Assembly (NCBI RefSeq): GCF_000429665.1
Contig: NZ_AUCH01000009.1
Location: 157,031 to 189,030, forward strand
DNA length: 32,000 bases
Reading direction: 5' to 3'
Origin: Azovibrio restrictus DSM 23866
GTDB taxonomy: Bacteria > Pseudomonadota > Gammaproteobacteria > Burkholderiales > Rhodocyclaceae
Shown here: positions 18,717 to 32,000 of the stretch, piece by piece
Numbering within the stretch: the stretch's first letter is position 1
Layout of the letters: each line of letters opens with the position of its first letter
Notes under the pieces: model-generated
The model's database searches: none
The model's input: only the letters and a program-made list of their open reading frames with translations
Told to the model about the DNA's origin: nothing
Program-made: the position numbers and the translations under genes

Positions 18717-18829
18717 GCTGACTTCCTCGAGACGAAATTGACAAACCGCAATTATAGCCGCTCGCAACCCGCCGATGGATGAAATAATGGACTCGTTCCC
18801 ATAAACCCAGTATGATTTCGCCTCCCCAC

Positions 18830-18906
18830 GCGCCCGTAGCTCAGTTGGATAGAGTACTGCCCTCCGAAGGCAGGGGTCGGACGTTCGAATCGTCTCGGGC
18901 GCGCCA
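18830..18906 (+). tRNA. tRNA-Arg (anticodon CCG)
   Basis: 77-nt cloverleaf read by eye. Acceptor stem GCGCCCG/CGGGCGC, D-arm GCTC AGTTGGATA GAGT, anticodon arm CTGCC-CTCCGAA-GGCAG (anticodon CCG), T-arm GGACG-TTCGAAT-CGTCT, discriminator G and encoded CCA. Confidence 0.93.
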
Positions 18907-19197
18907 AAATTCAAGCGGTCTGCCAGATCTCTGGCGGGCCGCTTCTGCTTTGTGCTGCCAGTATGCGCGGCGGACTTCATCCCGCTCCCGCTCGGCGTTG
19001 GCCTGGGCAATCACTTCCAGCTCGTCAATCTCCAGCAGTTCCGCCACCCGAGCTGCCATGTAGTCGTCCATTACCCGTTTCTTGGTCCTGTACTGGCTGA
19101 TCTGAGCCGTTGAACAGTCCAGCACGTTTGCCAGCTGGGCATCTGTTGCCAACTGGCAACGGGTCTTGATTTCATCCAGGAAAAGCAAGGTGTTCAT
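18841..19197 (-). CDS. HTH (Cro/CI/XRE-like) putative prophage repressor; the C-terminal ~45 codons run antisense through the tRNA terminator and the tRNA 3' half
   Basis: 118-aa ORF. The N-terminal ~70 aa look like a phage HTH regulator (QLATDAQLANVLDCSTAQISQYRTKKRVM). The AGAGG RBS lies ~8 nt before the ATG at 19197. The first in-frame stop is inside the tRNA gene at 18841. Confidence 0.65.
   Translation of the reverse strand: MNTLLFLDEIKTRCQLATDAQLANVLDCSTAQISQYRTKKRVMDDYMAARVAELLEIDELEVIAQANAERERDEVRRAYWQHKAEAARQRSGRPLEFWRARDDSNVRPLPSEGSTLSN
18914..18953 (+). terminator. intrinsic terminator of the tRNA-Arg gene
   Basis: 13-bp stem AGCGGTCTGCCAG / CTGGCGGGCCGCT with loop ATCT. The two G-U pairs exist only in the + strand transcript. 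It is followed by TCTGCTTTGT. Confidence 0.6.
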
Positions 19198-19234: not shown

Positions 19235-19258
19235 AGACGGGCCTATTCTCCCCACCTT

Positions 19259-19319
19259 GCTAACACTTGACAACTCACAGCCGTTAGTTATACCGTTCGC
19301 AAAACTAACGTGCGTTAGC
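19259..19319 (+). promoter_or_regulatory. candidate rightward promoter (TTGACA-N16-TATACC, 19267-19294) embedded in four CTAAC/GTTAG half-sites
   Basis: Half-sites: GCTAAC 19259-19264; CGTTAGTT 19282-19289 and AACTAACG 19303-19310 (perfect 8-bp inverted repeat, 13-nt spacer); GTTAGC 19314-19319. A consensus -35 hexamer is present and the -10 hexamer overlaps one half-site. Confidence 0.35.
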
Positions 19320-19354
19320 CACTGCGGACAAACATGGCGCCCTCCCTCACCTCT

Positions 19355-20461
19355 TCAAGCCCTTCCCAGCCGAGCATTCCGCTCTTGCTCGTGTCGCTTG
19401 CGGGCAACCATGGCGCGGGCGACGTCGTGTCGAATGGTCTTGATGTAGGGCATGTCGCTTGTCTCGTAGACGATCAAGGGAATCCCCGCTTCTTCCAAAG
19501 CCGCCCGCTTAACCTCATCGGCCCGCTTTCGTTCCTCCAGTTCGTGGACGGCCCCGTTGAGTTCGATAGCGGCAACGATGGCGAAGTTATCCCCTTCCTT
19601 CCTGCAGACCAGGAAATCAACGCTCTTTCGCCCTATCTCGTTCAGCTGTGCATTCGCATCCCATCCCCTGATGTGGAGCATTTGGGAAACGCTCACCTGA
19701 GAGAAGACAACCAGCTGGGGCAAGGCGGCAACAAGTTCGTGATAGAGGGTGGCCTCTGTGTCGTTGAACAACAGGAATTTGTCCCTGTATTTCCCGCGTC
19801 GGCTCTTTTTGGCTGCGGGAGCAGCTGCCGGGGCTGTCCCCTGCATGAAGAATTTCAACTCTTCTTCCGGAACGGGAATCGGGGCCTGGCTATTCGAGCC
19901 GCTCTTCTGCTCTACCGGATCAGGCGTTTTCCTGGGTTCCACCCTCTGCTGATAAGTGGGGGCTCTTCCCCATTCCGTCCTCTTCGGCTTGAAAAACCAG
20001 CCAGCTGCGCCCGCCGACAAAGAAAACAGAAGCAGAGGCGGAACAATGTCCCCGTACCCGGGATATTTGAGGGTGATTCCCCGCTGCTCCAGAACTTCCT
20101 TCACCTCGCCGCTCTTCCACATGAGCTCGAAAATTTCCCGCTGTCGAGTCATGTTCCGCCGGCAGGTTCCTTTCAGTTCACGGTCTGTAATCGTTCCCTG
20201 GCAGGCCGGAGGCGCCTTGTAGATCGCTGCCCAAGCCCGCTCCTTCAAGGGTCGGAACGCTCCTGTTTTGGCAAAGCTGTTGTAGGTGACCAGGAGCAGA
20301 ACAACCAGCAACCCCACTCCAAGCTTCAAAAACCTGCCCAGGGCTTTTCCGCTTGCCCCCTCCTCCTTCAACCAGAACCACACGGCAAGGCCAATTACAG
20401 CCATGACGACCCCCAGCATAAACAGGAGGTCGGACGGATTCGTCGGATTTTCCATGGGCAA
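19355..20461 (-). CDS. membrane-anchored DUF2726-domain protein (PD-(D/E)xK nuclease-like fold)
   Basis: 368 aa with hydrophobic segments near the N-terminus (LLFMLGVVMAVIGLAVWFWL, LKLGVGLLVVLLLVTY, VPPLLLFSLSAGAAGWFF). The C-terminal block matches my recollection of DUF2726 (TEATLYHELV...VFSQVSV...RKSVDFLVC...AAIELNG..H...R.ADEV...LEEAGIPLIVY). It is oriented opposite to the phage structural genes and has visibly lower G+C. Confidence 0.7.
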   Translation of the reverse strand: MPMENPTNPSDLLFMLGVVMAVIGLAVWFWLKEEGASGKALGRFLKLGVGLLVVLLLVTYNSFAKTGAFRPLKERAWAAIYKAPPACQGTITDRELKGTCRRNMTRQREIFELMWKSGEVKEVLEQRGITLKYPGYGDIVPPLLLFSLSAGAAGWFFKPKRTEWGRAPTYQQRVEPRKTPDPVEQKSGSNSQAPIPVPEEELKFFMQGTAPAAAPAAKKSRRGKYRDKFLLFNDTEATLYHELVAALPQLVVFSQVSVSQMLHIRGWDANAQLNEIGRKSVDFLVCRKEGDNFAIVAAIELNGAVHELEERKRADEVKRAALEEAGIPLIVYETSDMPYIKTIRHDVARAMVARKRHEQERNARLGRA

Positions 20462-20562
20462 GCTTCCTTGAAGTCTTTGGGCTTAGTTGAGAGTCACTAT
20501 CAATGACGATTCTAACCCAACAGCATTCCACGTTCGCCGCCTTGCAGCCCTGGAGCCAGTAA

Positions 20563-20922
20563 ATGCCGACCCCAAACTTCTCCCTGCTCCTGGGCGTCAT
20601 CGACTTTTCCAAGGTCGTTATTGCCCTGTTGTCCATTTTCGCGGCCCTGGTAGCGGTTGCCTTTATCCAGAACGGCGCCGGAAAGCTGGTGGCCTTCGTC
20701 AGCTCAGAATATGAACGCAAGCACCCGGAGCGGGATTTCCAGCGACGCTTCGCACGTGAAGAACGCGCCCGCGTTGCAAAGCGGGAGCGCAGTAAAAAAG
20801 ACCAGGACTACAAGAACTGGAAAGCGGCCCAGATGGGCCCCAGGATGCCCCGGGGGCGTAAGCCGACCAACACCGGCTTTGGCACCATGCCCAAAGGCCG
20901 CTGGAGAGGGCTGGACTGGTGA
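20563..20922 (+). CDS. small membrane protein with highly basic C-terminal tail (hypothetical, phage)
   Basis: 119 aa: one TM (VVIALLSIFAALVAVAFI) followed by an Arg/Lys-rich tail. It is the first gene in a chain of start/stop-overlapped + strand genes that leads into the replication gene. Confidence 0.5.
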   Translation: MPTPNFSLLLGVIDFSKVVIALLSIFAALVAVAFIQNGAGKLVAFVSSEYERKHPERDFQRRFAREERARVAKRERSKKDQDYKNWKAAQMGPRMPRGRKPTNTGFGTMPKGRWRGLDW

Positions 20923-21206
20923 CCTACGCCCACATCCCCCTATCTCGCCTCCGATCTGCCGTCGCCTTCTGTGCGGCGGTTTCCCGTCTGGCCTGGCAAT
21001 TCCCTGGTGATGCCCTGCGCCCCTTCAACTGGCGCCGCCTCCAGTCCGGCCAGACCCAGGCCGACTTCCGCCGCTATGCCTTCGCCCTGCGCGAAGCACG
21101 GCCGGCGCCAGCTGGCGCCCTGACGCCGCCAACGGACCGCGGCACCGCCCGCAGCGCAGCGAGGACGGAGCCCCGGACCGGCTGGCGCTCGGAGGGGCGC
21201 CCATGA
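20919..21206 (+). CDS. hypothetical small phage protein (paralogue of 21397..21666)
   Basis: The GTG start overlaps the upstream stop (GTGA), and its own stop overlaps the next ATG (ATGA). It shares a PFN(x)WRLQ..Q...AFA.RE block with the ORF at 21397. Confidence 0.45.
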   Translation: MTYAHIPLSRLRSAVAFCAAVSRLAWQFPGDALRPFNWRRLQSGQTQADFRRYAFALREARPAPAGALTPPTDRGTARSAARTEPRTGWRSEGRP

Positions 21207-21400
21207 CGCGCTGCTGTGCCCGCTGCTGCGCCTTCTGCACCTCGGCCCGAGCCATCCCGGCCAAGGACCCCTTGCCCCACGAGCTCCCCATGCTGGTGGG
21301 CTGCGTCATGAAGGGCCACAAGGTGCCCCCGGCGTCCTCCTGCCCCTGGCACTCCGTCGGCCCCCTGATCCACCCCTGCTTTACAGAGGTCCTCGGATGA
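21203..21400 (+). CDS. hypothetical Cys-rich small phage protein
   Basis: 65 aa with N-terminus MTRCCARCCAFC plus three further Cys. ATGA overlaps occur at both ends. Confidence 0.4.
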   Translation: MTRCCARCCAFCTSARAIPAKDPLPHELPMLVGCVMKGHKVPPASSCPWHSVGPLIHPCFTEVLG

Positions 21401-21666
21401 TCGTCGCCCAGATTCCCTATCACCACGTCCAGGCCGCATGCCGCAACAGCCGCGTCCTGGCCCATCGCCACCAGCTCCAGCCCTTCAACACCTGGCGCCT
21501 CCAGGCCCAAGGCACCTCCATTGCCTGGCTCTTCGAGCGGGCCCGTTTCGCCTTTGCCCGGGAGCCTTTCAAAGGCTTTTTGGGCAGGGCCTCCGGCACT
21601 GGTTTTTTTGATCAGCGGCGCAGTAGCACCGCTGATAAGTCTCGTTTAAGAGACTCTGCCCTTTAA
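21397..21666 (+). CDS. hypothetical small phage protein (paralogue of 20919..21206)
   Basis: The ATGA overlap with the upstream gene supports coupling, and the ORF ends 5 nt before the replication gene. The DNA block CCCTTCAAC..TGGCGCC..CTCCAG is shared with 21018-21050. Confidence 0.45.
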   Translation: MIVAQIPYHHVQAACRNSRVLAHRHQLQPFNTWRLQAQGTSIAWLFERARFAFAREPFKGFLGRASGTGFFDQRRSSTADKSRLRDSAL

Positions 21667-21671
21667 TCGCC

Positions 21672-22925
21672 ATGGCCATCGACACCGTGAAACTCCGTTC
21701 CCCCGCCATCGATGAAGGCACGGCCTCATTCCTGGAGCGCCAGTGCATCCTGCGCCAGGGGGTGCAGATCCTGACCGGCGAAATCCTCTACGAAATCACC
21801 ACCGGCACCCTGGAGGGCTCCTACGATGCCCGGATCATGTTCAAGGTCTGCCGGGAGGACTGGATCACCATAGGGGGCAAACCCCAGCAAGTCCCCTGTA
21901 AGCCCTATGTCCTGGTGGAATGCTCCCTGCACAAGTTCTTCCACGGGCAGAACGTCTACGGCAACCCCTGCAACTTCCCCCAGCTCTGCCGGCGCTTCAT
22001 CGACGCCCTCGGCGAGATCATGGGCTCGGATCACGGCATGTTCCACGAGGCCGATAAATGGGAAGTCCGGCGGGTGGACTGGGCAGAAATGTTCCACCTC
22101 TCCCCAGCCGCCCAGCGGGAATTCTTCTGGTCCATGCGGGACGTGCACTTTCCCAGGCGGGCCAAGAAAGAAGCCCGCTATGACTCGGCCATTCACTTCC
22201 CCGGCAAGTTCACCACCGTCCGCATCTACTCCAAGGGACCGGAATTCAAGCTGCACGGTGAACCCGTCCTGCGCCGGGGCCTGGTCAAGTACCAACAGCT
22301 CCAGGACGGCCAGAACCCGGGGAAGGGGATAGACGGCCCCGTGCCTAAAAAAGTGGTGGCCGGCATGCCCCGCTATGCCTGGATAGAAACGAAGCTCCAG
22401 GCCCTCCAGCGCCTGGCCAACTGGCGCCTGCGCGCTGAAGTGCAAATCAATGCAGACAAGCTGCATCACGACTTCGGGGGACGTTACCCCCTCGTATCCG
22501 AAATCACCGACGCCTATCTGATCCAGATCTTCGAAGCCCAGATCTTCAAGCTCCTCAAAGAAGGAAAGACCGCCATGGAAACCGTCCGAACCTTTCACCA
22601 GGTCAAAGCCCGCCTTGATGCGGTCTACGGCGGGCGCTCCGCCAACAATCTCTTCTCGTTCTGGGTCCAGCTCGCCGAACTCGGCGAAGAACCCACCAAG
22701 CTCAATTTCTCCAAATCCCAGTTCTACAAGAACAGGGCCAAGCTCGTGGATGCCGGCGTCTCCTGGCACGCCACCGACGTCTTCATCCTGCCCCAGGACA
22801 CCGCCCTGCCCAGGGACTTCCGTCCCCTCTCCGCCGACAGCCGGCGCTGTATCGGCCAAGTCTCGGCCAACTCGATCTTCAACTTCTGCCCGGTTCAACA
22901 ACACGGCCTGATGAAGGCCGCTTAA
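21672..22925 (+). CDS. rolling-circle replication initiation protein (filamentous-phage gene II/CRI-type)
   Basis: 417 aa, sitting immediately upstream of the ssDNA-binding and coat genes. The N-terminal region (IDTVKLRSP ... VECSLHKFFHGQNVYG) resembles the conserved 'SLPK..xGxN' block of phage/plasmid replication initiators. Confidence 0.75.
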   Translation: MAIDTVKLRSPAIDEGTASFLERQCILRQGVQILTGEILYEITTGTLEGSYDARIMFKVCREDWITIGGKPQQVPCKPYVLVECSLHKFFHGQNVYGNPCNFPQLCRRFIDALGEIMGSDHGMFHEADKWEVRRVDWAEMFHLSPAAQREFFWSMRDVHFPRRAKKEARYDSAIHFPGKFTTVRIYSKGPEFKLHGEPVLRRGLVKYQQLQDGQNPGKGIDGPVPKKVVAGMPRYAWIETKLQALQRLANWRLRAEVQINADKLHHDFGGRYPLVSEITDAYLIQIFEAQIFKLLKEGKTAMETVRTFHQVKARLDAVYGGRSANNLFSFWVQLAELGEEPTKLNFSKSQFYKNRAKLVDAGVSWHATDVFILPQDTALPRDFRPLSADSRRCIGQVSANSIFNFCPVQQHGLMKAA

Positions 22926-22944
22926 TCCCTGAAAGGAAGCCCCC

Positions 22945-23292
22945 ATGGAAGCCGTCGCCTCACACCCCACCCAGAAGAAACCCACCACCCCTGCCGTGCA
23001 AATGGGGCAGGTCTACCTGGAAGGCCGGATTGCCTTCCGCCGTCGCATGCGCGGCCAGGAAGGCCCGTATTTCCTCTCTGTCCTCAAGATTCCCGCACAA
23101 GATCAGTTCTCCCACCCGGGCACCGTGGAAGTGCTCAGCCATGACTCCCTGGGCCAGCCCGGGGACGACTGGAAAGGCATCTGTGAAGTCACCGGCTACC
23201 CCCGCTCCTACGACAGCAAGCCGGACAAGGAAACCGGCGAAGTCACGCGGATTCATACCGCCGAAGTCCGCCTTCGGGTCCTGGAGCAATAA
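22945..23292 (+). CDS. putative ssDNA-binding protein (pV-like)
   Basis: 115 aa with a good RBS (AAGGAAG, 5 nt before the ATG). The call rests on size and on position directly after the replication gene and before the coat genes. It is positional, not motif-based. Confidence 0.5.
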   Translation: MEAVASHPTQKKPTTPAVQMGQVYLEGRIAFRRRMRGQEGPYFLSVLKIPAQDQFSHPGTVEVLSHDSLGQPGDDWKGICEVTGYPRSYDSKPDKETGEVTRIHTAEVRLRVLEQ

Positions 23293-23294
23293 GC

Positions 23295-23537
23295 ATGGCC
23301 ACCTGTATTCAGTTCGACGCCAGCGGCTTTGCCGTCCTGGCTGCCGGAGAACCCAGCACGTGCACCGCCGTGCTGCTCTCCGGCACTGAATACGCCCAGA
23401 TTCAAGCGGCCCAGTCGGCAGACATCAGCTATCCCCAGGCCGGCGCCGTCTTCTCCTTCTTCTTCGGATTCACCTTGGCGGCCTGGTACGTCGCCAAGAA
23501 CGTTGGACTGCTCCTGGAAGCCGTCCGGCGGTTTTAG
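23295..23537 (+). CDS. small phage protein with C-terminal TM helix (hypothetical)
   Basis: 80 aa with a C-terminal hydrophobic helix (AVFSFFFGFTLAAWYVA) followed by basic residues. It lies between the pV-like gene and the major coat gene. Confidence 0.5.
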   Translation: MATCIQFDASGFAVLAAGEPSTCTAVLLSGTEYAQIQAAQSADISYPQAGAVFSFFFGFTLAAWYVAKNVGLLLEAVRRF

Positions 23538-23596
23538 CTTTCGGCATCGCTGAAAGGGTCCAGGCCCCTTGCCTGGTTTGTATGGAGGAATCACCC

Positions 23597-23869
23597 ATGA
23601 AACACGTAATGCTTCTTCTTCAATCCCTGGCGGCCCTGCCAGCCAAGATGGCCCGGTCCGCCCTGGCCCTCCTGACTGCGGGCCTTGCCCTGCTCGGGAT
23701 CGCCGGCCCGGCCCTGGCCGCTGACCCGGTGGACTTCAGCGGCCTGACCAACTCCGTGGACTTCTCCTCGGTCATCGTGGCCCTGATGGCAGTCGCTGCC
23801 GCCCTGATGCTGGTCTACATCGCCTGGAAGGGCGCCAAGATGATCTTGGCCGCTGTCCGGGGCGGTTAA
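23597..23869 (+). CDS. inovirus major coat protein precursor (pVIII-like)
   Basis: GGAGGA lies 7 nt before the ATG at 23597. A long signal peptide ends in ...GPALA. The predicted 49-aa mature peptide is ADPVDFSGLTNSVDFSSVIVALMAVAAALMLVYIAWKGAKMILAAVRGG, with an acidic N-terminus, a hydrophobic core and a basic C-terminus. Confidence 0.85.
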   Translation: MKHVMLLLQSLAALPAKMARSALALLTAGLALLGIAGPALAADPVDFSGLTNSVDFSSVIVALMAVAAALMLVYIAWKGAKMILAAVRGG

Positions 23870-23888
23870 TCGGTCGCGTCACGTTGCC

Positions 23889-23905
23889 CACTTTCGCATG
23901 CGAAA
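23889..23905. repeat. 17-bp motif CACTTTCGCATGCGAAA (contains the perfect 14-bp palindrome TTTCGCATGCGAAA), copy 1
   Basis: Identical 17-mer to 28829-28845. This copy lies 20 nt after the major coat stop codon. Confidence 0.9.
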
Positions 23906-23913
23906 CCCCGGCC

Positions 23914-23994
23914 ATGGTTACTGAGCTCTGGTATCTCCTCTTTGCCTTCTGGGGAATCGTCTGCGGGTGGGCTGTCATTGAAGGGCTGAAATAA
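23914..23994 (+). CDS. 26-aa hydrophobic peptide (candidate pVII/pIX-like minor coat protein); not in the ORF track
   Basis: ATG at 23914, TAA at 23992-23994, translation MVTELWYLLFAFWGIVCGWAVIEGLK. Size, hydrophobicity and position between the major coat and pIII-like genes fit inovirus tip proteins. No clear RBS was seen. Confidence 0.35.
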   Translation: MVTELWYLLFAFWGIVCGWAVIEGLK

Positions 23995-24094
23995 CCCGGA
24001 ATCTGGACAATTCCGGATCAACCCTCCAGATCCTTGCGGAAGGATAGGCCGGTGTTCCTGCGGGTGGAAACCGGCCCCTATAAGGGGTTACCAG

Positions 24095-25594
24095 GTGAGC
24101 TTCCACACCCTCCTACTCGCGCTCTTGCTGCTCCTCTCAGGCGCCAGCCATGCAGCGACTTACATCCTCAACGGCACCGGCAGCCGGGTCTGCTGCGGTA
24201 CGAACTGCACGACAGCGGTCGCCCGTACCCTGCTGGGCTACCAGGCGGGGGACTGCACGGAAAGCAGTTCCGGCACGACTCGCTATTACTCGACCAATGC
24301 CAATTCCACTTCCAAATGCTCGGGCACCTATCTTGGCTTGCATGGCCAATCCACCGCCCCTTGCGGCACCTGCACCACCCTTGAACTCAAAGACGGCACC
24401 TGCGTTGCCGACCAGGCCGGCGCCGCTGCCGTGGGTAGCACCCCCTCGGCCCCCGGAGACATTCCCGGTACGGACGATAACGGCGAAGAAACGCCCCCGG
24501 TCTGCTCCCCAGGCGCTGGCCTGGGCAAACTGATCTGTAAAAACGGCTGGGTCTTCCAGTGTCAATCGGCGTCTTCCGTCGGCGCCACAGAACACAGTGC
24601 CGGGGAAACCTGCGCCTACGGCCCCTGCACCCGCACCACCAATCAATGCAACCCCTACACCCCCACAGGAGGCTGCCGCGAGAATGAACAGGCCATCGGC
24701 GCCGGCTGCCTCTGCGCCCCGGGTGCAACCCGGGTCAATGGCGTCTGCAAATACTCGGACCCCCCAAACGACGATAGCGGCAACACGGGAGGCACCGGCG
24801 GAACCGGCGGCAACGGCAATACGGGCGGCGATACCGGCGGCGATACCGGCGGCGACACCGGGGGAGATACGGGCGGCACGGGTGGCGACACCGGGGGCGG
24901 AGATAGCGGCGGCGGCAACTCGGGGGGCAGCAACTCGGGGGGCAGTAACTCCGGCGGCAGCAACAGCGGGGGCGGAAACTCCGGCGGCAACGGGGACGGG
25001 GAAGGCGAAGGGGAAGGAGACAGCGAAACCCCCACCCCGGAATGCCAGGAGGGCGAGGAGTGCAACGGCAATGGCATCTGTGAAGCCGGAGAAACCTGCA
25101 ACGGCCTCCCGGGAGATACCAACGGCGACGGGGTCTGCCAGACCAATGAACCCTGCGGGGGCGGTAGCGGCAACCCCGTGGAATGCGAAGCCGGCCAGGA
25201 ATGCAACGGTAACGGCATCTGCGAAACCGGGGAGGACTGCACGGTCCCTTCCGAAGATGACTCCGGCAATGGCAACGGCACCGGAAATGGGAACGGCAAC
25301 GGGACCGGCACCGGCTCGGACTGGTGGAACAAGACCACCGGCCAGGGAGACCCCACGGTCCCCGATGGGGATGGCTTCGCCTCGGCCTTCTTCCCCGGCA
25401 CCTTTGACAGCCTCCTGAACTGGGACCTGCCGGCCCATAGCTCTGTCTGCCCCGTGGGCCAGTTCGACGCCTTCGGCCAGAGCTTCCAGGTGGATTCCCA
25501 CTGCACCCTGGTGCAAAGCCACTTTCCCACCCTCCGGGCTGCCTTCATCGTCTTCTGGCTGCTGGTGGCCGTGATGCTCGTCATGAAAGCCTGA
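24095..25594 (+). CDS. adsorption/minor coat protein (pIII-like) with Gly-rich linkers and C-terminal membrane anchor
   Basis: 499 aa with signal peptide MSFHTLLLALLLLLSGASHA and a Cys-rich N-domain. A ~78-aa G/T/D/S/N linker follows (GGTGGTGGNGNTGGDTGGDTGG...GGSNSGGSNSGG...GEGEGEG). It also has duplicated ECxxGxECNGNGICExGExC modules, a second GNGNGTGNGNGNGTGTG linker and a C-terminal TM (AAFIVFWLLVAVMLVM). Confidence 0.8.
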   Translation: MSFHTLLLALLLLLSGASHAATYILNGTGSRVCCGTNCTTAVARTLLGYQAGDCTESSSGTTRYYSTNANSTSKCSGTYLGLHGQSTAPCGTCTTLELKDGTCVADQAGAAAVGSTPSAPGDIPGTDDNGEETPPVCSPGAGLGKLICKNGWVFQCQSASSVGATEHSAGETCAYGPCTRTTNQCNPYTPTGGCRENEQAIGAGCLCAPGATRVNGVCKYSDPPNDDSGNTGGTGGTGGNGNTGGDTGGDTGGDTGGDTGGTGGDTGGGDSGGGNSGGSNSGGSNSGGSNSGGGNSGGNGDGEGEGEGDSETPTPECQEGEECNGNGICEAGETCNGLPGDTNGDGVCQTNEPCGGGSGNPVECEAGQECNGNGICETGEDCTVPSEDDSGNGNGTGNGNGNGTGTGSDWWNKTTGQGDPTVPDGDGFASAFFPGTFDSLLNWDLPAHSSVCPVGQFDAFGQSFQVDSHCTLVQSHFPTLRAAFIVFWLLVAVMLVMKA

Positions 25595-25596
25595 CC

Positions 25597-25890
25597 ATGA
25601 TTCCTGTCCTTACCATCTTCTCCCCCCTCCTGACCTACTTCCTCCGGGCCGTGGTGGTGAAGTTCCTTGTGTTCACCGCCGTCATCGCCCTGGTCACCTT
25701 CCTGGTCCCCTTCGCCGTGAAGTGGGTGGCCGGCTTCATTTCTCCCCAGGCCTTGAATGGTGCCTTCAGCGGCATTCCGGATGGGGTCTGGTACTTCGCG
25801 GACTTCTTCGCCCTGGACTACGGCTTGCCCCTGGTGTTCTCGGCCCTGGTGTCCCGCTTCCTGATCCGGCGCCTGCCGGTCATTGGCTAA
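25597..25890 (+). CDS. pVI-like minor coat/membrane protein
   Basis: 97 aa and strongly hydrophobic, with multiple TM segments. It directly follows the pIII-like gene, as in inoviruses. Confidence 0.6.
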   Translation: MIPVLTIFSPLLTYFLRAVVVKFLVFTAVIALVTFLVPFAVKWVAGFISPQALNGAFSGIPDGVWYFADFFALDYGLPLVFSALVSRFLIRRLPVIG

Positions 25891-25900
25891 GGAGTCCCCC

Positions 25901-26116
25901 ATGACGAATCCCGTCCTCGATCTGGACAAGCACAACCGGACCTTCATCGACCACGCCCGGGATGCTGCCCGATGGTTTGGCGAAGGCTTCGTGGTGTTTG
26001 TTTCTAACGTCGCGGTGCTCGGCACCCATGACAAGGGCAGCGCCCAGGCTGAGGCCCGGGCCTGGTCGGAGAAGAACGGCCGGGAGAATGTCCGGATTCG
26101 TAGGATCAAAGTCTAA
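25901..26116 (+). CDS. hypothetical small phage protein
   Basis: AAGGAG lies 6 nt before the ATG at 25901. 71 aa. Its stop overlaps the next ATG (TAATG). The C-terminus ...VRIRRIKV is repeated at the end of the next ORF. Confidence 0.5.
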   Translation: MTNPVLDLDKHNRTFIDHARDAARWFGEGFVVFVSNVAVLGTHDKGSAQAEARAWSEKNGRENVRIRRIKV

Positions 26117-26307
26117 TGTCCATCAAGCTTTATACGGGCCGGATGGGGAGCGGAACAACCTATGAAGTTGTTTCCGTCTTGATTCTGGGAACTGGTTTCC
26201 GAGCCGAAAGCGCTTACAAGGATCTTTGGTTGGCCAAACAGGTAGCCCGGGAGCATGTGGGCAGCACCCCTCGGGTTTTCGTCAAAATTCGTAGGATCAA
26301 AGTCTAA
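26116..26307 (+). pseudogene. 'ghost' unit created by a 191-bp tandem duplication: zot 5' end with a mutated Walker A fused to divergent sequence ending in IRRIKV
   Basis: The translation MSIKLYTGRMGSGTTYEVVSVLILG matches the zot N-terminus MSIKLYTGRMGSGKTYEVVSVVILG at 23 of 25 residues, with the P-loop Lys changed to Thr. The 25-nt perfect repeat ATTCGTAGGATCAAAGTCTAATGTC occurs at 26096-26120 and 26287-26311. Confidence 0.75.
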
Positions 26308-27383
26308 TGTCGATCAAGCTCTATACGGGCCGCATGGGGAGCGGCAAGACCTACGAGGTGGTTTCCGTGGTGATCCTGGGCGCCCTGGCCCGGGGCCGGC
26401 GGGTGGTGTCCAATATCGCCGGGCTGAACTATGAAGCCATGCAGGCCGTCCTGGTGGAGTCCGGCGTTCCTGCGGACCAGGTGGGCCAGCTGGTGCAGGT
26501 CACCCATGCCCAGGTAGAAGAACCCCAATTCTGGCGCACAGATAAGGATGAAGCCGAAGGGGTGGATTCATTCATCCAGCCCGGGGACCTGGTCTGCCTG
26601 GATGAAATATGGCGCTTCTGGGAGGGCTTCGCCGGCCGCAAGATGCCCGAGCGGGTGATGAACTTCTACCGCATGCACCGGCACTTTGCCCACCCGGAAA
26701 CCGGGGTGACTTGTGATGTGGCCCTGATCACCCAGGACCCCGGGGACCTGTCCCGCCGGGTCCGGGCGGTGGTGGAGGAAACCTACCGCATGGAGAAGCT
26801 AACCGCGGTTGGCATGTCCAGGCGGTACCGGGTGGATATCTTCTCCGGCTGCAGCAGCCGGCCCCAGTTCCTGCGCTCCTTGCAGCGCACCTATGAGAAG
26901 AAATACTTCCCCCTCTACAAGAGCCATTCCCAGGCCAAGGACGATAGCGCCGGCCCCCGGGAAGAGAACATCGACCAGCGGGGCAACATCCTGCGCGGGG
27001 CGCTCTTCAAGGTGGTCCTGCCCGTCATGGCCCTGGTGGGCATGGCCTCGGTCTATTTCGTCTGGTCCTTCCTGCATCCGGAGCCGCCCCCCAAGGCCAA
27101 GACCGCCCAGGCCGGGGCGGGCAAGCCTGCCGGCGCCACTACCCCGGCCCCGGCCGGCGCCGCGCCATTACCTGGGATGAACAGCCGTTTCCGGGTGGTG
27201 GGCTATGTGGCCCAGGGGAGCAATCCCCGGGTCTACCTGGCCTACGACGAAACCGACCGGGCCCGCATCTTCTACAAGCGCCAGGTGGTGGAGTCCCATA
27301 ACTGGAAGATGACTCTTAAGGCGCCGGATGGGCAGATCACGGAATGGAGCGGCAGCAAGGGGAAGGGAGAGAAGACCCCATGA
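26307..27383 (+). CDS. Zot/pI-like inovirus assembly ATPase
   Basis: 358 aa. Features: N-terminal Walker A GRMGSGKTYE, Walker B-like LVCLDEIW, an internal TM (VVLPVMALVGMASVYFVWSFL) and a Pro/Ala-rich linker. This matches Zot-family architecture and sits in the canonical position before the secretin. Confidence 0.85.
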   Translation: MSIKLYTGRMGSGKTYEVVSVVILGALARGRRVVSNIAGLNYEAMQAVLVESGVPADQVGQLVQVTHAQVEEPQFWRTDKDEAEGVDSFIQPGDLVCLDEIWRFWEGFAGRKMPERVMNFYRMHRHFAHPETGVTCDVALITQDPGDLSRRVRAVVEETYRMEKLTAVGMSRRYRVDIFSGCSSRPQFLRSLQRTYEKKYFPLYKSHSQAKDDSAGPREENIDQRGNILRGALFKVVLPVMALVGMASVYFVWSFLHPEPPPKAKTAQAGAGKPAGATTPAPAGAAPLPGMNSRFRVVGYVAQGSNPRVYLAYDETDRARIFYKRQVVESHNWKMTLKAPDGQITEWSGSKGKGEKTP

Positions 27384-28633
27384 AGATCCGCGCCTTCTGC
27401 CTGGTGCTCTGCTTCCTCGCTGGCCAGGCCCTGGCCCAGGAGGGCCGGGACATCAGCATGCAGTTCTCGGAGATCCGCTTACCTGACCTGGTGCGCCTGC
27501 TCTTTACCGATATCCTCGGAAAGAACTACGTGCTGGACAAGGAGGTCCTGGAGTCTCCGGAAATCCTGACCATCAATATCAAGTACATGAGCCCGGCCCA
27601 GCTGGAAACCCACCTGCTGGAGATCATCCAGCGCCGGGGCTTCAAGGTGGATTGCCGGCAAGGGTTCTGCCATGTGGCCAAGCGTCCCGAGGCGGCCCAG
27701 GAAGCCCCCCGGGCTTTCTATGTCTATCGCCCCCGGCATCGTTCGGTGCCCTATCTCCTGGCCCTGGTGGGGCCTCTGTATCCGCCCCAGTCCTTCACCA
27801 CCCAACGCCAGATTGACAACCCCGGCCCGGAAACCCAGAAGTCCGGCAGCACCGGCCACGAAACCGGGACCAATGCCACTTCCTTAATCGACAAGGGCAA
27901 CCTGGATACCCTGGTCTATCAAGGCAGCCCCCAGGAGATCACCCGACTGGAAAGCCTGCTGCAGCAGCTCGACCAGGCGGCGGCGGAAGTGATCGTGAAA
28001 GCCTCTGTCTTTGAAGTCCGCCAGACCCGCCAGGAGAGTTCCGCCGTGTCCCTGGCCCTGGGACTGCTCAAGTCCGCCTCGGGCCTGGGCATCACCATCA
28101 CCCAGGACACCAGCAACGGGAACGCGGTCAAGATCAAGGCCGGGGACGTGTCCGCCGTCTGGTCGGCCCTGAGCTCGGACAGCCGCTTCCGGCTCTTCAG
28201 TGCCCCCACCATCCGGATCAGGAGCGGCAACACGGCCAAGTTCATGGCCGGCTCGGAAGTGCCGGTGCTGGCCAGCACCACCACCACGACCACCGGCACG
28301 GTGCAAAGCGTGGAATACAAAAGCTCCGGGGTCATCCTGGAACTTACCCCCCAGGTCCGCCCCGGGGGGACGGAACTCCAGATCGCCCAGGAAGTGAGCA
28401 GCTTTACCGCCACCACCAACGGGGTGAACAACTCCCCGACCCTCTTGAAGCGAGAGCTGACCACCCAGATTACCGCCCACGATGAAGAAATCATTCTCCT
28501 GGGCGGCCTGGAAGAAACCACCCGCACCGACGGACAGTCCGGCCTCTCCTTCCTCCCCGCCTGGATGAAAGGCAGCTCAGAGGGGGAGGACCGGACCGAA
28601 ATCATGATGATTCTTAACGTTCAGAGGATTTGA
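27380..28633 (+). CDS. pIV-like secretin (phage export channel)
   Basis: The ATG at 27380 overlaps the zot stop (ATGA). Signal peptide MKIRAFCLVLCFLAGQALA. The C-terminal secretin domain shows these blocks: VIVKASVFEV, FRLFSAPTIRIRSGNTAKFMAGSEVPV, YKSSGVILELTPQV and TQITAHDEEIILLGGL. Confidence 0.85.
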   Translation: MKIRAFCLVLCFLAGQALAQEGRDISMQFSEIRLPDLVRLLFTDILGKNYVLDKEVLESPEILTINIKYMSPAQLETHLLEIIQRRGFKVDCRQGFCHVAKRPEAAQEAPRAFYVYRPRHRSVPYLLALVGPLYPPQSFTTQRQIDNPGPETQKSGSTGHETGTNATSLIDKGNLDTLVYQGSPQEITRLESLLQQLDQAAAEVIVKASVFEVRQTRQESSAVSLALGLLKSASGLGITITQDTSNGNAVKIKAGDVSAVWSALSSDSRFRLFSAPTIRIRSGNTAKFMAGSEVPVLASTTTTTTGTVQSVEYKSSGVILELTPQVRPGGTELQIAQEVSSFTATTNGVNNSPTLLKRELTTQITAHDEEIILLGGLEETTRTDGQSGLSFLPAWMKGSSEGEDRTEIMMILNVQRI

Positions 28634-28635
28634 AT

Positions 28636-29091
28636 ATGGATACCTGCACGCTCCCCCCTGACTTCGTTCCCCAGGCCCTGGCGTTCCTGGAGACCTTCAC
28701 CTGGTCAATATTTGGGTTGGGGGTTATTACCGCCGTTTTTGCGTTCCTGGTCTTCCATTCCCTGGATGCCTTCTTGTCCGCGTTCATCCGGCCCCGACTG
28801 ATCCAAGCCCTGCGCCGTCGCCGTCGTGCACTTTCGCATGCGAAAACGGCGAAGCAGGGAACCCGGTTTAGGAACCGGCAACCGTTCCCGACAAACCACC
28901 AGCAGGCACCAGCCCCGCCTTTCCCCTGGCATGCTGACACCGACCATATGGTAATGGTATGGTGCCGCATATGGTCGCCGTCTACGCTCTCGCATATCTT
29001 CAAGCATTTGCCGAAGCCCTGCATTGGCTTATCTTCCGGCGTGATAGGTTGTCCAGGATATACGGCGCCCAGCCAGCTTATACGGCGATAA
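28636..29091 (+). CDS. hypothetical; only the N-terminal ~70 codons (TM plus basic stretch) look protein-like, and the remainder overlaps a hairpin-rich probable non-coding region
   Basis: ATG at 28636, TM segment WSIFGLGVITAVFAFLVF, then RRRRR. The ORF then runs through palindromes at 28829-28845, 28855-28888 and 28941-28977. Confidence 0.3.
   Translation: MDTCTLPPDFVPQALAFLETFTWSIFGLGVITAVFAFLVFHSLDAFLSAFIRPRLIQALRRRRRALSHAKTAKQGTRFRNRQPFPTNHQQAPAPPFPWHADTDHMVMVWCRIWSPSTLSHIFKHLPKPCIGLSSGVIGCPGYTAPSQLIRR
28829..28845. repeat. 17-bp motif CACTTTCGCATGCGAAA, copy 2
   Basis: Identical to 23889-23905. It lies ~195 nt after the secretin stop. Confidence 0.9.
28941..28977. repeat. 10-bp perfect inverted repeat CGACCATATG-N17-CATATGGTCG (candidate phage packaging signal or origin hairpin)
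   Basis: The arms are at 28941-28950 and 28968-28977. The loop contains GGTAATGGTATGGTG. It sits in the post-secretin region where inoviruses carry their intergenic hairpins. Confidence 0.4.
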
Positions 29092-29113
29092 CGCCGTCTA
29101 CTTCACGTTAGGG
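29059..29113 (+). other. left boundary recombination site of the cassette array: attI-like or attC lacking R''
   Basis: The direct repeat TATACGGCG occurs at 29059-29067 and 29079-29087. A hairpin TATACGGCG-ATAA-CGCCGTCTA follows, then the spacer CTTCAC and the core GTTAGGG at 29107-29113. No RYYYAAC inverse core lies upstream. Confidence 0.45.
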
Positions 29114-29142
29114 GTCTCAATTCATCACAAGGAGAATTGTCC

Positions 29143-29874
29143 ATGAAGGAAGACAAAGCGCAGTTTCCCGTTCGCATGTTCATTCGGCCGGCAGAGAGTT
29201 TCGGCGACCCCGAATGGTCACCTTTAAGCGAATCAGCGTCCCCTTCGTTTCATTACGAAATGGACTACGCGAATGTTCTTATCGCACTATTGACCTCGTT
29301 TGCCACAGTTGCACGCAAGGAACTTCACACAACACACAAATTGCGCTCCGTTCTCTGTGAACAATGGAAGGCTCAAGAGGCAGGTACCCCGTTTGATCTT
29401 AGAGTTCTGACAGAAGACAACAATGTTGCCCTGATCGTTTCCAAGCTGTGGCACGAACAGAATCGGCAGCAAGAGGTAGGGTTCATCTTTGGCTCCGAGG
29501 AACCCGCTGATGTTTTGGTGCGCCATGTCGGTGGGGCTTGGAACATCGTTGAAGTCAAGCCCCGTCCGAACATCCTTGTGTCGTCTCAGTCAATGCCTGC
29601 TGGATATCTCAGAGATACTGCCAAGACGATCTCTCATCGCTTTGCTGCTTTGACTGAAACACAGGATTATGTCCGCCACTTGTTCCAGGAAATTGAACGC
29701 GAGATTATTGTCCCGGAATCATCTCTTCGAGATATGAGCAGTTGGTTAAGAGCTAGTGCCCGTCGCGTTTCCCGTGAAGCAGATGCCTTTGACGAGCGTG
29801 CGAGAACACACCAGACGGAATTCCAACGCCGCATCCTTGCACTGGGTCGCAGTAGGGAAGGAGCGCCATCGTGA
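29143..29874 (+). CDS. hypothetical protein (cassette 1, gene A)
   Basis: AAGGAGA lies 7 nt before the ATG at 29143. 243 aa. I recognise no motif. The stop overlaps the GTG of the next ORF (GTGA). Confidence 0.55.
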   Translation: MKEDKAQFPVRMFIRPAESFGDPEWSPLSESASPSFHYEMDYANVLIALLTSFATVARKELHTTHKLRSVLCEQWKAQEAGTPFDLRVLTEDNNVALIVSKLWHEQNRQQEVGFIFGSEEPADVLVRHVGGAWNIVEVKPRPNILVSSQSMPAGYLRDTAKTISHRFAALTETQDYVRHLFQEIEREIIVPESSLRDMSSWLRASARRVSREADAFDERARTHQTEFQRRILALGRSREGAPS

Positions 29875-30170
29875 CCAACCCAAAAGAGGCAGTGGGATGG
29901 CTAAATTTTGCGCTCAACCTGCGAGAGTCAATAACCTCCATTGAACAGTCGCTGTCTAAGTCCAAATCCGATGTTGACGGCATCCGAACGGAAATCATGC
30001 TTCTCGTTGAACGCCTTGAACATTTTGACGACCTGCTGTTGAGACTTGAGAGGCGAATAGACAGAATCGAGGATCGCACGCCGAATGTCGCGGTTGTTGC
30101 CGTCTCCCCATATCCAAGCACGAAAGAAGTCCCGAGGCTCACGAGCGATGACAAGTCGGTCGACCCCTAA
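29871..30170 (+). CDS. hypothetical coiled-coil protein (cassette 1, gene B)
   Basis: 99 aa with heptad-like content (LRESITSIEQSLSKSKSDVDGIRTEIMLLVERLEHFDDLLLRLERRIDRIEDR). The TAA stop (30168-30170) is part of the attC inverse core CCTAAC. Confidence 0.5.
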   Translation: MTNPKEAVGWLNFALNLRESITSIEQSLSKSKSDVDGIRTEIMLLVERLEHFDDLLLRLERRIDRIEDRTPNVAVVAVSPYPSTKEVPRLTSDDKSVDP

Positions 30171-30231
30171 CCCTGCGTTCGAGGCGACCTGCGCGAAAAG
30201 CCGCGCAGGCGCCTCAACTCCACGTTAGAAG
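30165..30231 (+). other. integron attC site A
   Basis: Boxes: R'' CCTAAC (30166-30171), spacer CCTGC, L'' GTT[C]GAGGCG with one extrahelical C. The central perfect 8-bp stem is CCTGCGCG-AAAAGC-CGCGCAGG. Then L' CGCCTCAAC, spacer TCCAC and R' GTTAGAA (30224-30230). Confidence 0.8.
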
Positions 30232-30233
30232 GC

Positions 30234-30509
30234 ATGCGATCCATCGTCATTGATTGCGGCTCAGTTCAGTCGGAAGCTGATTTTTGGTCCGCATACGTTC
30301 GCACCGCCGAGCCAGAAGGTGCCGGCCACTTTGGCCGGAACCTTGATGCATTTTGGGACGGGCTAAACGGCGGTCCAGGTTGGCCCGGCGAGTGCCGGCT
30401 CCTGTTCATTAATACTTCGCCGCTCCACGCGTTTCGCGGCGGGAAATTTCTTGAGGTGTTGCGTGATATCGCCAGCCGATCTAAGGCCGTGGAGGTCAAA
30501 TTTGAGTAA
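30234..30509 (+). CDS. barstar-family ribonuclease inhibitor / immunity protein (cassette 2)
   Basis: 91 aa. The segment FWSAY....GAGHFGRNLDAFWDGLNG is collinear with the barstar helix-2 region (YYGENLDALWDCLTG). The size fits the family. The ATG lies 4 nt after the attC core. Confidence 0.65.
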   Translation: MRSIVIDCGSVQSEADFWSAYVRTAEPEGAGHFGRNLDAFWDGLNGGPGWPGECRLLFINTSPLHAFRGGKFLEVLRDIASRSKAVEVKFE

Positions 30510-30511
30510 GC

Positions 30512-30570
30512 CTTCTAACCTTTCGCTGCAGCGGACGGCTTCGCCGCCCGCTGAGCTTGCACGTTAGGTC
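30512..30570 (+). other. integron attC site B
   Basis: Boxes: R'' TCTAAC (30514-30519), spacer CTTTC, L'' GCT[G]CAGCGG with one extrahelical G, short central loop, L' CCGCTGAGC, spacer TTGCAC and R' GTTAGGT (30563-30569). Confidence 0.8.
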
Positions 30571-30575
30571 TCAAT

Positions 30576-31241
30576 ATGGCACCTCCTCCCCGCGTCACCA
30601 AAGCTGTTGTTCAAACCGAAGTGACAAGCTTCGTGGCAAACATAAATCGCGCTCGCGATCTCTATAGAAAGATAGCTCTTCACGGCTACACGGGCACTTC
30701 TGCTGCAACGTCAACCCGACTATCCAACCCGGATACGCGTGATGCCGCGCAATTCATCTTCTTTGAAATTGCTGCAAAGTTTGAAGACCACGCCAAATTC
30801 ATGTTCCAGGTCGAAGTTCGGTCGCGACTTCAAGTTACTGCTACGCGAAGCGCCTTCGTAATGGGCGACCTTGATAATGGCTTGAACAACAAGCTTGGCT
30901 GGGGCAGCCCACAGCGGCTGAAAGAACGTGGACACAATCTGTTCGGTGCTAACTCGTTCTTCGGTGACCTCGTCAACAAACTTGGAAACCAAACCTACAA
31001 GACATTGGTTTCTGCTCACACGGTACGAAACCGTGTCGCTCATGACGGTGGGGCTGCGCAAACCAAGTTCGTGAAGCTTCTTGATGGAGATGGAATCCAA
31101 GCTGCTGAACGACAAGGTATGAGTATCGGCAGGTACCTTCGCGATTACCCAACGGCTGCAACTGCCGCAAATCGCAACTTCTTTTTGTACTTGGCGGCAT
31201 ATGAAGACTTTGCAACCAAGGCAGGTGCAGCATTGCCATGA
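30576..31241 (+). CDS. HEPN-like protein with Rx4H motif (cassette 3), putative RNase/abortive-infection-type effector
   Basis: 221 aa and predicted to be all-alpha by composition. The motif SAHTVRNRVAHDG (R-N-R-V-A-H = Rx4H) sits in the C-terminal third, as in HEPN families (Abi_2 / RiboL-PSP-like 'RNxxAH'). Confidence 0.45.
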   Translation: MAPPPRVTKAVVQTEVTSFVANINRARDLYRKIALHGYTGTSAATSTRLSNPDTRDAAQFIFFEIAAKFEDHAKFMFQVEVRSRLQVTATRSAFVMGDLDNGLNNKLGWGSPQRLKERGHNLFGANSFFGDLVNKLGNQTYKTLVSAHTVRNRVAHDGGAAQTKFVKLLDGDGIQAAERQGMSIGRYLRDYPTAATAANRNFFLYLAAYEDFATKAGAALP

Positions 31242-31248
31242 GCCTGAG

Positions 31249-31321
31249 ACCTAACATCACAATCCACCGGACCGTCAAAAAGCTGCGCATTTTGCCGTCC
31301 GGTGATTTTCAACGTTAGATT
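31249..31321 (+). other. integron attC site C
   Basis: Boxes: R'' CCTAAC (31250-31255), spacer ATCAC, L'' AATC[C]ACCGGAC with one extrahelical C, central CAAAAAGC-TGC-GCATTTTG stem, L' GTCCGGTGATT, spacer TTCAAC and R' GTTAGAT (31314-31320). Confidence 0.8.
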
Positions 31322-31343
31322 TTTAAACTAAAAGAGCAATTCA

Positions 31344-32000
31344 ATGGAAAAGTTATTAGAAGTGCTTAACCCTCTAATACAATTTGTATTGGTATGTGTA
31401 GGGCTTTGGTACACGGTAGAAACTAGAAAATTAAGGCAGCAGTCCGAAAGACAATCGAAAGCAGCTTTGGGTCAAAAGCGGTTGTCAATAGCTCCCTATT
31501 TAGTAAGCGGACTAGTAAATCCGCTATCTGAAGATGAGGATGCAAGTGAATCAGGCGATAGCGCTGAGAGAGCCGAGCTGAAAAAAGCTATTGAAGATGC
31601 AAGGAAAAATGATGAATTGCTATATTTTGTCGGTGTTAGCAATCCAACTGACAAAGTTGCTATTCAGGTGGATATATATCTCTACGATAAAAATAAGAAA
31701 AGCTACTTATTAGGTGATACCGGACATCAAGTCTTGAGCAGTAAGGACCATGAAATCATCTCGGTATCTAGGCCATATATGACAGAGAGCGAAGTCACAG
31801 CGGAGATAAAAGCTGATCATGGCCTTCATGCCGAGTTTGCTCGTGCGGTCTCACAAAGAAAAGAAACCCATTCTGAAATTTATGTTCTTTACAAAGACAT
31901 CGAAGGGTTCTCATATTTGGCGGCTCGTCAATTTAAAGAAGAAGATGACGGAGACATAGTGTATAGGCAGCAAAATTTCTTTTTTAGTGGGTTGGAGTGA
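31344..32000 (+). CDS. hypothetical membrane-anchored protein (cassette 4), very AT-rich
   Basis: 218 aa with an N-terminal TM (LIQFVLVCVGLWYTV), an acidic linker and a beta-rich C-domain. The TGA stop falls on the last three bases of the window. The composition is completely different from the host. Confidence 0.55.
   Translation: MEKLLEVLNPLIQFVLVCVGLWYTVETRKLRQQSERQSKAALGQKRLSIAPYLVSGLVNPLSEDEDASESGDSAERAELKKAIEDARKNDELLYFVGVSNPTDKVAIQVDIYLYDKNKKSYLLGDTGHQVLSSKDHEIISVSRPYMTESEVTAEIKADHGLHAEFARAVSQRKETHSEIYVLYKDIEGFSYLAARQFKEEDDGDIVYRQQNFFFSGLE

Follow-up and report, generated by a model that had tools for sequence, protein, structure and literature searches.

An integron cassette array with an attI site and no integrase gene nearby, adjoining an inovirus prophage in Azovibrio restrictus

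The category of attC clusters lacking an integron integrase (CALIN) was defined by Cury et al. (2016, PMC4889954), who showed such clusters to be common; most published examples are without a recognisable pseudogene of the integrase gene, intI (PMC4889954). The right-hand end of a 32,000-nucleotide stretch of Azovibrio restrictus DSM 23866 (contig NZ_AUCH01000009.1; the whole stretch is called the window, and its numbering is used throughout) raises the question of what such an array can be. Three attC sites had been pointed out there from the letters of the sequence and assigned to a CALIN in a chromosomal context. It was asked whether these sites are genuine, and whether the array is a mere attC cluster or a part of an integron. 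The array is an integron with an attI site but without an integrase, and not a mere cluster of attC sites. The segment 29059-32000 is read, with a probability of roughly 0.88, as the attI-proximal end of an integron, comprising a complete attI and at least four promoterless, co-oriented cassettes closed by attC sites, with intI absent and the whole of CALIN type.

The three sites, named attC-A (30165-30230), attC-B (30513-30569) and attC-C (31249-31320), were found on the + strand at the places where they had been claimed, the coordinates agreeing to within 1 nt. Their layout is uniform: R'' of the form (C/T)CTAAC, a 5-nt spacer, L'', a variable centre, L', a spacer of 5-6 nt and R' of the form GTTAG(A/G). 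The R''/R' core pairs are CCCTAAC/GTTAGAA, TTCTAAC/GTTAGGT and ACCTAAC/GTTAGAT, each with R-box pairing over 5 bp, and the inverted core-site pattern (R'' RYYYAAC, R' GTTRRRY) was recognised in all three. The window was also scanned geometrically for an AAC...GTT pair 40-150 nt apart with at least 5 contiguous R-box pairs, near-symmetric spacers of 4-7 nt and a single-bulged L stem of 8 bp or more. Only the same three + strand sites were returned, together with their own mirror images; no site was found in 200 block shuffles of the window, and looser settings brought in only obvious noise.

The bottom strands were folded as single-stranded DNA, and the expected R- and L-box geometry was present at all three sites. 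The z scores were -4.6, -3.6 and -4.95 for attC-A, attC-B and attC-C, and for each site none of 200 shuffles was as stable. The R box was paired over 5 bp, the central spacers were unpaired, and the L-box bulge was G, C and G in the same order; the top strands of attC-B and attC-C folded less well than their bottom strands. According to the original prediction the L stem of each site has exactly one unpaired base. A single bulge is indeed carried on the L'' arm (5' on the top strand) in all three, but the wording was too strict, as attC-A has an additional T bulge on the bottom strand. This second position corresponds to the top-strand A after L'' (GA-C; T on the bottom strand), which is at least 90% conserved in the attC family (alignment A1, column 23); it is bulged in attC-A and forms a G-T wobble pair in the attC-B fold. 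No terminators were called on the attC stems, and no T tracts follow them.

Rfam returned no match in the window at gathering thresholds and was uninformative. A covariance model (R2) was made in this analysis from 16 attC sites of intI-linked arrays, none of them from the window. The intI loci, 80 in all, were collected by a genome scan in which the IntI protein of locus L023 was used as the query. L023, from the metagenome-assembled genome (MAG) GCA_040754195.1, is a complete integron, and its recombinase fits TIGR02249 at 490 bits against a cut-off of 265. Scores of 66.9 bits (E 5.2e-15), 56.8 bits (E 1.9e-12) and 54.3 bits (E 8e-12) were obtained for attC-A, attC-B and attC-C, so that the covariance check proposed with the prediction gave significant, strand-specific scores of 54-67 bits for every site. 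With filters off, the corresponding values on the - strand were 18, 14 and 10 bits, and no further site with E < 2 was seen in the window. Many attC sites outside the training set were recovered by R2 in integrase-linked arrays, all on the expected strand.

Close relatives of the three sites were found in other integrons. The 58-nt core of attC-A is the same as that at 10674-10739 of L023, within a complete integron. L027, a Halothiobacillus MAG whose intI is 80% identical to that of L023, has a near-identical counterpart of attC-A, which also matches an attC of the class 1 array on a Citrobacter GES-5 plasmid. attC-B shares 88.9% identity over 54 nt with the dfrB2 attC of plasmid R388, where this cassette is part of a class 1 integron, and attC-C is 85.7% identical to a site on a plasmid of Azoarcus sp. 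KH32C. The window sites are of the attC/attI type seen in chromosomal integrons mainly of Betaproteobacteria and of some Gammaproteobacteria.

A core had also been marked at 29107, ahead of the first cassette. That site is real, but it is more than a bare core, being the crossover point of a complete attI (29059-29113, + strand). The attI reads, in order, TATACGGCG (direct repeat DR2, 29059-29067), 11 nt, TATACGGCG again (DR1, 29079-29087), ATAA, CGCCGT, CTACTTCAC (29098-29106) and GTTAGGGG. An inverted repeat is formed by ACGGCG (29082-29087) and CGCCGT (29092-29097), GTTAGGG occupies 29107-29113, and the crossover falls between G and TT at 29107/29108. In the intI loci, the DNA from intI to the first cassette has the same architecture, namely one or two copies of (T)TATACACC, a short loop, an inverted GGTGT and CTACTT(A/C)AC-GTTRGG. 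The ACGGCG/CGCCGT of the window in place of ACACC/GGTGT is a compensatory change, and this variant is common to L058. Pairing of the inverted repeat amounts to 86.5% over 21 sites and falls to 29-57% if the partner is shifted by 1-3 columns; its covariation includes compensatory A-T to G-C changes, that of the window among them. The 17-mer GTCTACTTNACGTTRGG, which occurs once in the window, is present in 8 of the 80 intI loci, always on the cassette strand and upstream of the point where the intI match begins, at a distance of about 80-250 nt. An attI model (R3) was made without the window, from 20 sites adjacent to intI; its single significant match in the window is at 29071-29115 (38.2 bits, E 3e-7). 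Because of the shared architecture, the covariation, the 17-mer and this sole R3 match, the array is taken to open with a genuine attI, with direct repeats, inverted repeat and CTACTTNAC-GTTRGG standing directly 5' of the first cassette.

The resemblance that had been noticed between the bases after 29107 and those after attC-B is present, as GTTAGGGGTCTCAAT (29107) and GTTAGGTCTCAAT (30563). The motif GTT(A/G)G(G/A)GGTCT(C/T), or a close variant, stands just past the crossover at several junctions of attI and first cassette (L038, L053, L111) as well as after attC-B, the window copies lying at 29107-29121 and 30563-30575. The conserved R' region of this family may be longer than 7 nt.

The attC sites stand at the 3' ends of promoterless open reading frames (ORFs), all on the + strand, and the view of a genuine cassette array of one orientation was thus borne out for sites, ORFs and polarity alike. 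Cassette 1 (29108-30224) contains the overlapping ORFs 29143-29874 (243 aa) and 29871-30170 (99 aa). Neither gave a Pfam, PADLOC, NCBIfam or PDB match, and no attC was found between them (R2, filters off). The stop codon said to be embedded in R'' is the TAA at 30168-30170, inside R'' of attC-A. In cassette 2 (30225-30563) a barstar-like protein of 91 aa is encoded at 30234-30509 (Pfam Barstar PF01337, E 1.6e-10). Cassette 3 (30564-31314) encodes a 221-aa protein (30576-31241) of a widespread family, for which 113 homologues were collected. The homologue in L023, 86% identical, is likewise a cassette: attC sites bound it, and its 5' boundary (GTTAGGT...ATG) is the same. Cassette 4 (31315-32000) is cut by the window end and holds an AT-rich ORF of 218 aa (31344-32000). 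Comparison of its protein with genomes and metagenomes gave only one distant relative. A 29% homologue of the protein stands between two attC sites of the intI-linked locus L038 (Candidatus Contendobacter). A contig from the Logan assemblies (L001), 100% identical to the window, extends 39 nt past it, and a fourth attC begins there 2 nt beyond 32000; it opens with AATCTAACCTTTCGTATATGG, and its R'' and spacer are the same as those of attC-B.

No match was obtained for the cassette proteins in PADLOC, NCBIfam or PDB sequence searches, no known defence system was recognised by PADLOC, and no known resistance genes are present in the window cassettes. In the cassette 3 family an arginine and a histidine (R151...H156) are invariant within the motif R-N-R-x-A-H (Rx4H, HEPN-like). 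The AlphaFold model of the 221-aa protein is all-alpha and confident (pLDDT 90.8), and Foldseek searches with it returned weak HEPN-toxin matches alone (E > 0.5). The invariant Rx4H motif is thus the one feature that hints, weakly, at a HEPN protein. Outside integrons the family occurs in islands and prophages of Achromobacter and Comamonas (loci L020-L024); in Achromobacter the gene is followed, some 180 nt downstream, by a lone attC (47.8 bits) on the opposite strand. The G+C content, which had been described as dropping stepwise from the host level, is 0.672 in the host, 0.631 in the phage region on the left of the array and 0.522, 0.578, 0.510 and 0.395 in cassettes 1 to 4. The last cassette is AT-rich as described, but the fall is not monotonic, cassette 2 lying above cassette 1.

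In the intI loci with an identified attI, 21 of which were examined in detail, the attI lies directly upstream of intI and on the opposite strand, the distance to intI in relatives being about 100-170 nt. At that place in the window intI is absent. Neither intI nor a remnant of it was detected, within the array or the 29 kb that precede it, by Pfam searches of large ORFs, tblastn or an IntI profile. No integrase domain was found among the large ORFs tested against Pfam, the IntI of L023 had no tblastn match in the window, and a profile of 25 IntI proteins run against the six frames with filters off gave a best E of 0.15 at an unrelated place. The window therefore holds neither the divergent intI neighbour of this attI family nor, in cis, an intI with an IntI-specific domain of the kind that makes an integron complete. 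Since no intI gene or remnant is present in those 29 kb or in the array, the CALIN label given by the prediction applies; in the terms of Cury et al. (2016) there are three attC sites, with a fourth just outside, and no intI within 29 kb upstream.

The setting of the array was then described from the left. Positions 1-18829 are ordinary chromosome of 67% G+C, with genes for a Na/Pi cotransporter, GGDEF/EAL proteins, guanylate kinase, SpoT, TatD and cytochrome c peroxidase. A tRNA-Arg (CCG) gene follows at 18830-18906 (+ strand; ARAGORN), and its 3' end is the left boundary of an island. Conspecific contigs (L002-L007, 98.5-99.4% identical) match the window only up to 18906 and carry a terminator and a flavodoxin-like gene past that point, where the window has the island. 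Because the conspecific contigs stop matching there, everything from 18907 onward is regarded as a strain-specific island of at least 13.1 kb. The array is thus chromosomal, as had been stated, but its context is more precisely a strain-specific island at tRNA-Arg(CCG), the site being empty in conspecifics. For the same reason the array is not a sedentary chromosomal integron held at one locus within the species. Two Logan contigs of sample SRR1797197 (L018, 18877-24628; L001, 25881-32039) are 100% identical to the window, and since they run across both the island and the array junctions, these are not assembly artefacts.

The first island gene (18907-19197, - strand) encodes a phage-type helix-turn-helix (HTH) regulator (phrog_4441, E 1.3e-21; no Pfam match), and its reading frame continues into the tRNA gene. 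It is followed on the - strand by a gene for a nuclease-related DUF2726 protein (19355-20455; Pfam PF10881, E 6e-22; G+C 0.56), in the position of which the relative L016 has a NERD nuclease gene. Between the two, nested inverted repeats of the form GCTAAC...GTTAGT-15 nt-ACTAAC-gtgc-GTTAGC (19258-19320; fold z = -2.8) are probably operator sites of the HTH regulator. These CTAAC/GTTAG repeats share their motif with integron R boxes, and were rejected as a degenerate attC or attI (R2 7.8-9.3 bits, E 2-6; no R3 hit). At about 20510-20538, at the left edge of the phage gene block, TCTAAC-15 nt-CACGTTCGCC resembles an attC without its centre; it was likewise rejected as a degenerate attC or attI (7 bits, E 8; no R3 hit) and may be due to chance. 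Within the window, no direct repeats of at least 10 nt flanking the prophage and no second tRNA 3' end were found, nor any dif-like XerCD site within 3 mismatches of the pattern used. Exact-protein look-ups toward the right end of the island returned only two short Logan contigs from one sample, a look-up of the flavodoxin neighbour returned an unrelated context, and scans of viral sequences with the junction 27-mer and with the HTH protein gave no match.

The genes of an inovirus prophage occupy 20563-28880, all on the + strand. They were assigned by Pfam (Phage_CRI, DUF2523, Zot and Secretin), by PHROGs (single-stranded DNA (ssDNA)-binding and virion proteins) and by homology to IMG/VR inoviruses, which extends over 21600-28636. 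Small ORFs (20563-21666) and a hairpin-rich intergenic region (21525-21671) precede the genes for the replication protein gII (21672-22925), an ssDNA-binding protein (22945-23292), the coat protein (23582-23869), a g3-like protein (24095-25594) and g6 (25597-25890). Duplicated Zot N-terminal fragments (25883-26307), Zot itself (26307-27383), the secretin (27380-28633) and a small membrane ORF beginning at 28636 complete the block. The set of gII, ssDNA-binding protein, coat proteins and a Zot-type assembly ATPase is that of an inovirus. An 87% identical direct repeat (26096-26189 and 26287-26380) duplicates the start of the Zot gene and so places the short ORFs 25883-26116 and 26116-26307 before the complete gene; the related phages L106 and L107 share this duplication. 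At the left edge of L107, an Azovibrio restrictus prophage with no tRNA nearby, a dif-like half-site TTGCGCATAA was seen at 2855-2880, and L016 has a tyrosine integrase; close phage relatives thus seem to differ in their route of integration.

The closest secretin, 99% identical and annotated Azovibrio sp., lies on contig L106, which matches the window with 98% identity as far as 28870-28880 and is divergent beyond. From this divergence it follows that phage homology ends 178 nt before the attI repeats, leaving a junction segment at 28881-29058. The segment had no match in any fetched locus, did not fold distinctly (z = -1.2) and contained no IntI-like coding remnant. It holds two copies of CATATGGT and, beside them at 28976-28985, a second copy of CGCCGTCTAC, the part of the attI inverted repeat and spacer found at 29091-29100, 115 nt downstream. 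This second copy may be the scar of a rearrangement that removed intI. The small membrane ORF encodes 77 aa in L106; in the window a small indel (28862-28880) extends it to 151 aa (28636-29091), so that it reads across the junction into attI. No family or relatives were found for the 151-aa product. An attC-like fold just upstream of 29107 was considered and rejected (29040-29115, z = -1.8; no R'' partner, no R2 match). As these partners are missing, the phage was not inserted as a giant cassette at the attI crossover.

The prophage therefore occupies the place where intI would be expected. Most likely, a once-complete integron lost its intI in a rearrangement that joined phage and array. That attI is retained immediately ahead of the first cassette speaks for a platform that was once complete and then lost intI, and as the 80 related inovirus contigs are without attC or attI, the link with the phage is probably a local rearrangement. 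A composite island is accordingly preferred to a phage-borne array. Several points weigh against this account. No remnant, insertion sequence (IS) element or flanking repeat marks a loss of intI. The search for intI covered the window, and a gene to the right of 32000, placed unusually downstream of the array, or one elsewhere in the genome is conceivable. The attC and attI scores come from models made in this analysis, with Rfam giving no match. The direct repeats of the window attI are spaced by 20 nt, as against 22-24 (or 33-34) nt in the intI-linked sites. No cassette promoter was shown, the one candidate (28934-28963) being a 9/12 consensus match at chance level. Finally, activity of the attC and attI sites is predicted from sequence and structure; for recombination of the attC sites by IntI the nearest evidence is their similarity to the attC of R388 dfrB2 and of L023.

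The array could instead be the cargo of an integrative filamentous phage, the whole island forming one prophage that has its own attI and loads cassettes by means of host IntI in trans. In that layout attL at tRNA-Arg would be followed by the HTH gene, the DUF2726 gene, the phage genes, attI and the cassettes, and then, past the window, by an integrase gene and attR. The left flank of the array is phage, and its right flank falls beyond the window. Several features agree with this layout: the island begins exactly at a tRNA with a phage-type regulator, the genes from the tRNA to attI are all phage-like or accessory, with the phage genes co-oriented with the cassettes, and no second att-like repeat lies between phage and array. 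In L016 the tyrosine integrase and NERD nuclease genes stand at the contig end opposite the secretin; if that genome is circular the integrase follows the secretin, and by analogy an integrase here would sit to the right of the array. In addition, attI and cassettes without intI occur in 15 of 21 IMG/VR loci, directly after endolysin genes in the three tested. However, the 80 related inovirus contigs (794 kb) gave no attC or attI hit, L106 shows no attI in the 179 nt past its divergence in spite of 98% identity, inovirus genes occur in none of the 80 intI loci, and the integrase and attR on the right are hypothetical. On balance the phage-borne arrangement is considered doubtful, and the composite island is retained.

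There is only a slight probability that the integron is complete and has an intI beyond the window, whether downstream of the array or split off by insertion of the prophage. The phage could have parted intI from attI, and the sequence covered ends at 32000. Against this, attI is directly upstream of intI on the opposite strand in the 21 loci examined in detail, the DNA to the left of the phage holds only the DUF2726 gene, the HTH gene and the tRNA, with no intI or remnant in 29 kb upstream, and conspecific genomes are without an integron at the locus. Slighter still is the probability that the cassettes were inserted by IntI at a secondary GTT site other than attI ('attG'), which would make the array a CALIN that never had its own platform. 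IntI-mediated insertion outside att sites has been reported (bioRxiv 10.1101/2022.09.11.507474), CALINs may arise in this way (PMC4889954), and upstream of 29107 there is no R'' or L-box partner. The 55 nt up to the crossover nevertheless match the family attI, at the R3 score given above and with the compensatory change in the inverted repeat. That the three sites arose as palindromes by chance, that they represent terminators or REP-like repeats, or that the region is an assembly chimera, is hardly credible, for although inverted repeats downstream of ORFs can be terminators, the shuffles yielded no such site, the scores are high on one strand only, the sites are nearly identical to attC of complete and clinical integrons, terminator calls and T tracts are lacking at the stems, and the Logan contigs agree with both junctions.

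The working model for the integron without intI was assembled from established integron biology. An integrase-less array of this kind could not move its own cassettes and would act as a passive store and landing pad. With IntI supplied in trans, from another integron that is already in the cell or newly enters it, each attC would fold on its bottom strand into a bulged hairpin. Recombination between two attC sites by IntI would then excise a cassette, and recombination of attC with attI between the G and TT at 29107/29108 would insert one. Expression of the cassettes would not start from a promoter inside intI; it would have to start in the junction region or result from read-through from the co-oriented phage genes upstream.

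As in published CALINs, at least two co-oriented attC sites and cassette ORFs are combined with the lack of an intI gene nearby, and, as in most of them, no intI pseudogene is recognisable; the window array differs by its attI directly 5' of the first cassette and by its place in a tRNA-linked island beside an inovirus prophage. With complete chromosomal integrons (L023; L027; L032, Nitrosomonas eutropha; L058) it shares the attC type, including one identical core, the attI architecture ending in CTACTTNAC-GTTRGG and the 221-aa cassette family (86% identical); those integrons have intI about 100-170 nt upstream of attI, whereas the window has none. To the class 1 integron In3 of R388 (dfrB2) the array is linked by attC-B, with 88.9% identity over 54 nt and the same L-box geometry, but the cassette content, the attI and the integrase class are different, and resistance genes are absent in the window array. 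Integrative inoviruses include the Pf4 type, with a tyrosine integrase at a tRNA gene, and the CTXphi type, which uses XerCD at dif. The present prophage resembles them in its gII, ssDNA-binding protein, coat, Zot and secretin genes and in its site beside a tRNA gene, but no integrase, att repeats or dif-like site for it were found within the window. CALINs are also known in phages, and that of the Shewanella prophage M16-3 has its own attI (PMC9892861). Both there and here an integrase-less array is linked to a prophage, and the M16-3 array is preceded by attI; those phages are tailed, whereas an inovirus adjoins the present array, the position of which inside a phage genome is hypothetical. 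No report linking integron sites to inoviruses was found in the searchable literature. The CALIN array is thus a known kind of element, and its unusual point is the junction with a filamentous prophage.

The attI-type 17-mer also picked up 21 IMG/VR contigs (L111-L131), in 15 of which attC arrays in the correct orientation come after an attI-type site. Examples are L111 at 715-731 (+) and 11284-11300 (-), L114 at 3858-3874 (-) and L119 at 1471-1487 (+). These sites consist of the inverted repeat and GTCTACTTNACGTTRGG and score 24-39 bits with R3, and no IntI homologue was present in the stretches fetched. In L111, L114 and L123 a phage endolysin gene (GH19 or GH108) stands directly upstream. 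Landing pads of this kind, with attI but no integrase, may recur among the genomes of tailed phages.

The result is mostly confirmatory. As a clean, well-bounded integron that lacks its integrase and keeps its attI, the array supports the view that at least some CALINs are decayed integrons and not products of insertion at secondary sites. Its attC sites are close to clinical class 1 sites (R388 dfrB2 and the GES-5 plasmid array) and are found here in Azovibrio (Rhodocyclales), a kinship that fits the idea that clinical cassettes derive from environmental Betaproteobacteria. Inside a mobile island the array is physically joined to a filamentous prophage, and the same type of attI, with cassettes and without an integrase, recurs in tailed-phage contigs; if phages do carry attI landing pads, cassettes could spread without an integrase travelling along. 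An integrative filamentous phage with its own attI and cassettes and no IntI, borrowing the IntI of each host, is an unlikely case. As filament length sets no limit on cargo size, a phage of this kind, if real, could carry cassettes efficiently, and the same logic may extend to the tailed-phage contigs in which attI and cassettes stand after lysis genes with no intI.

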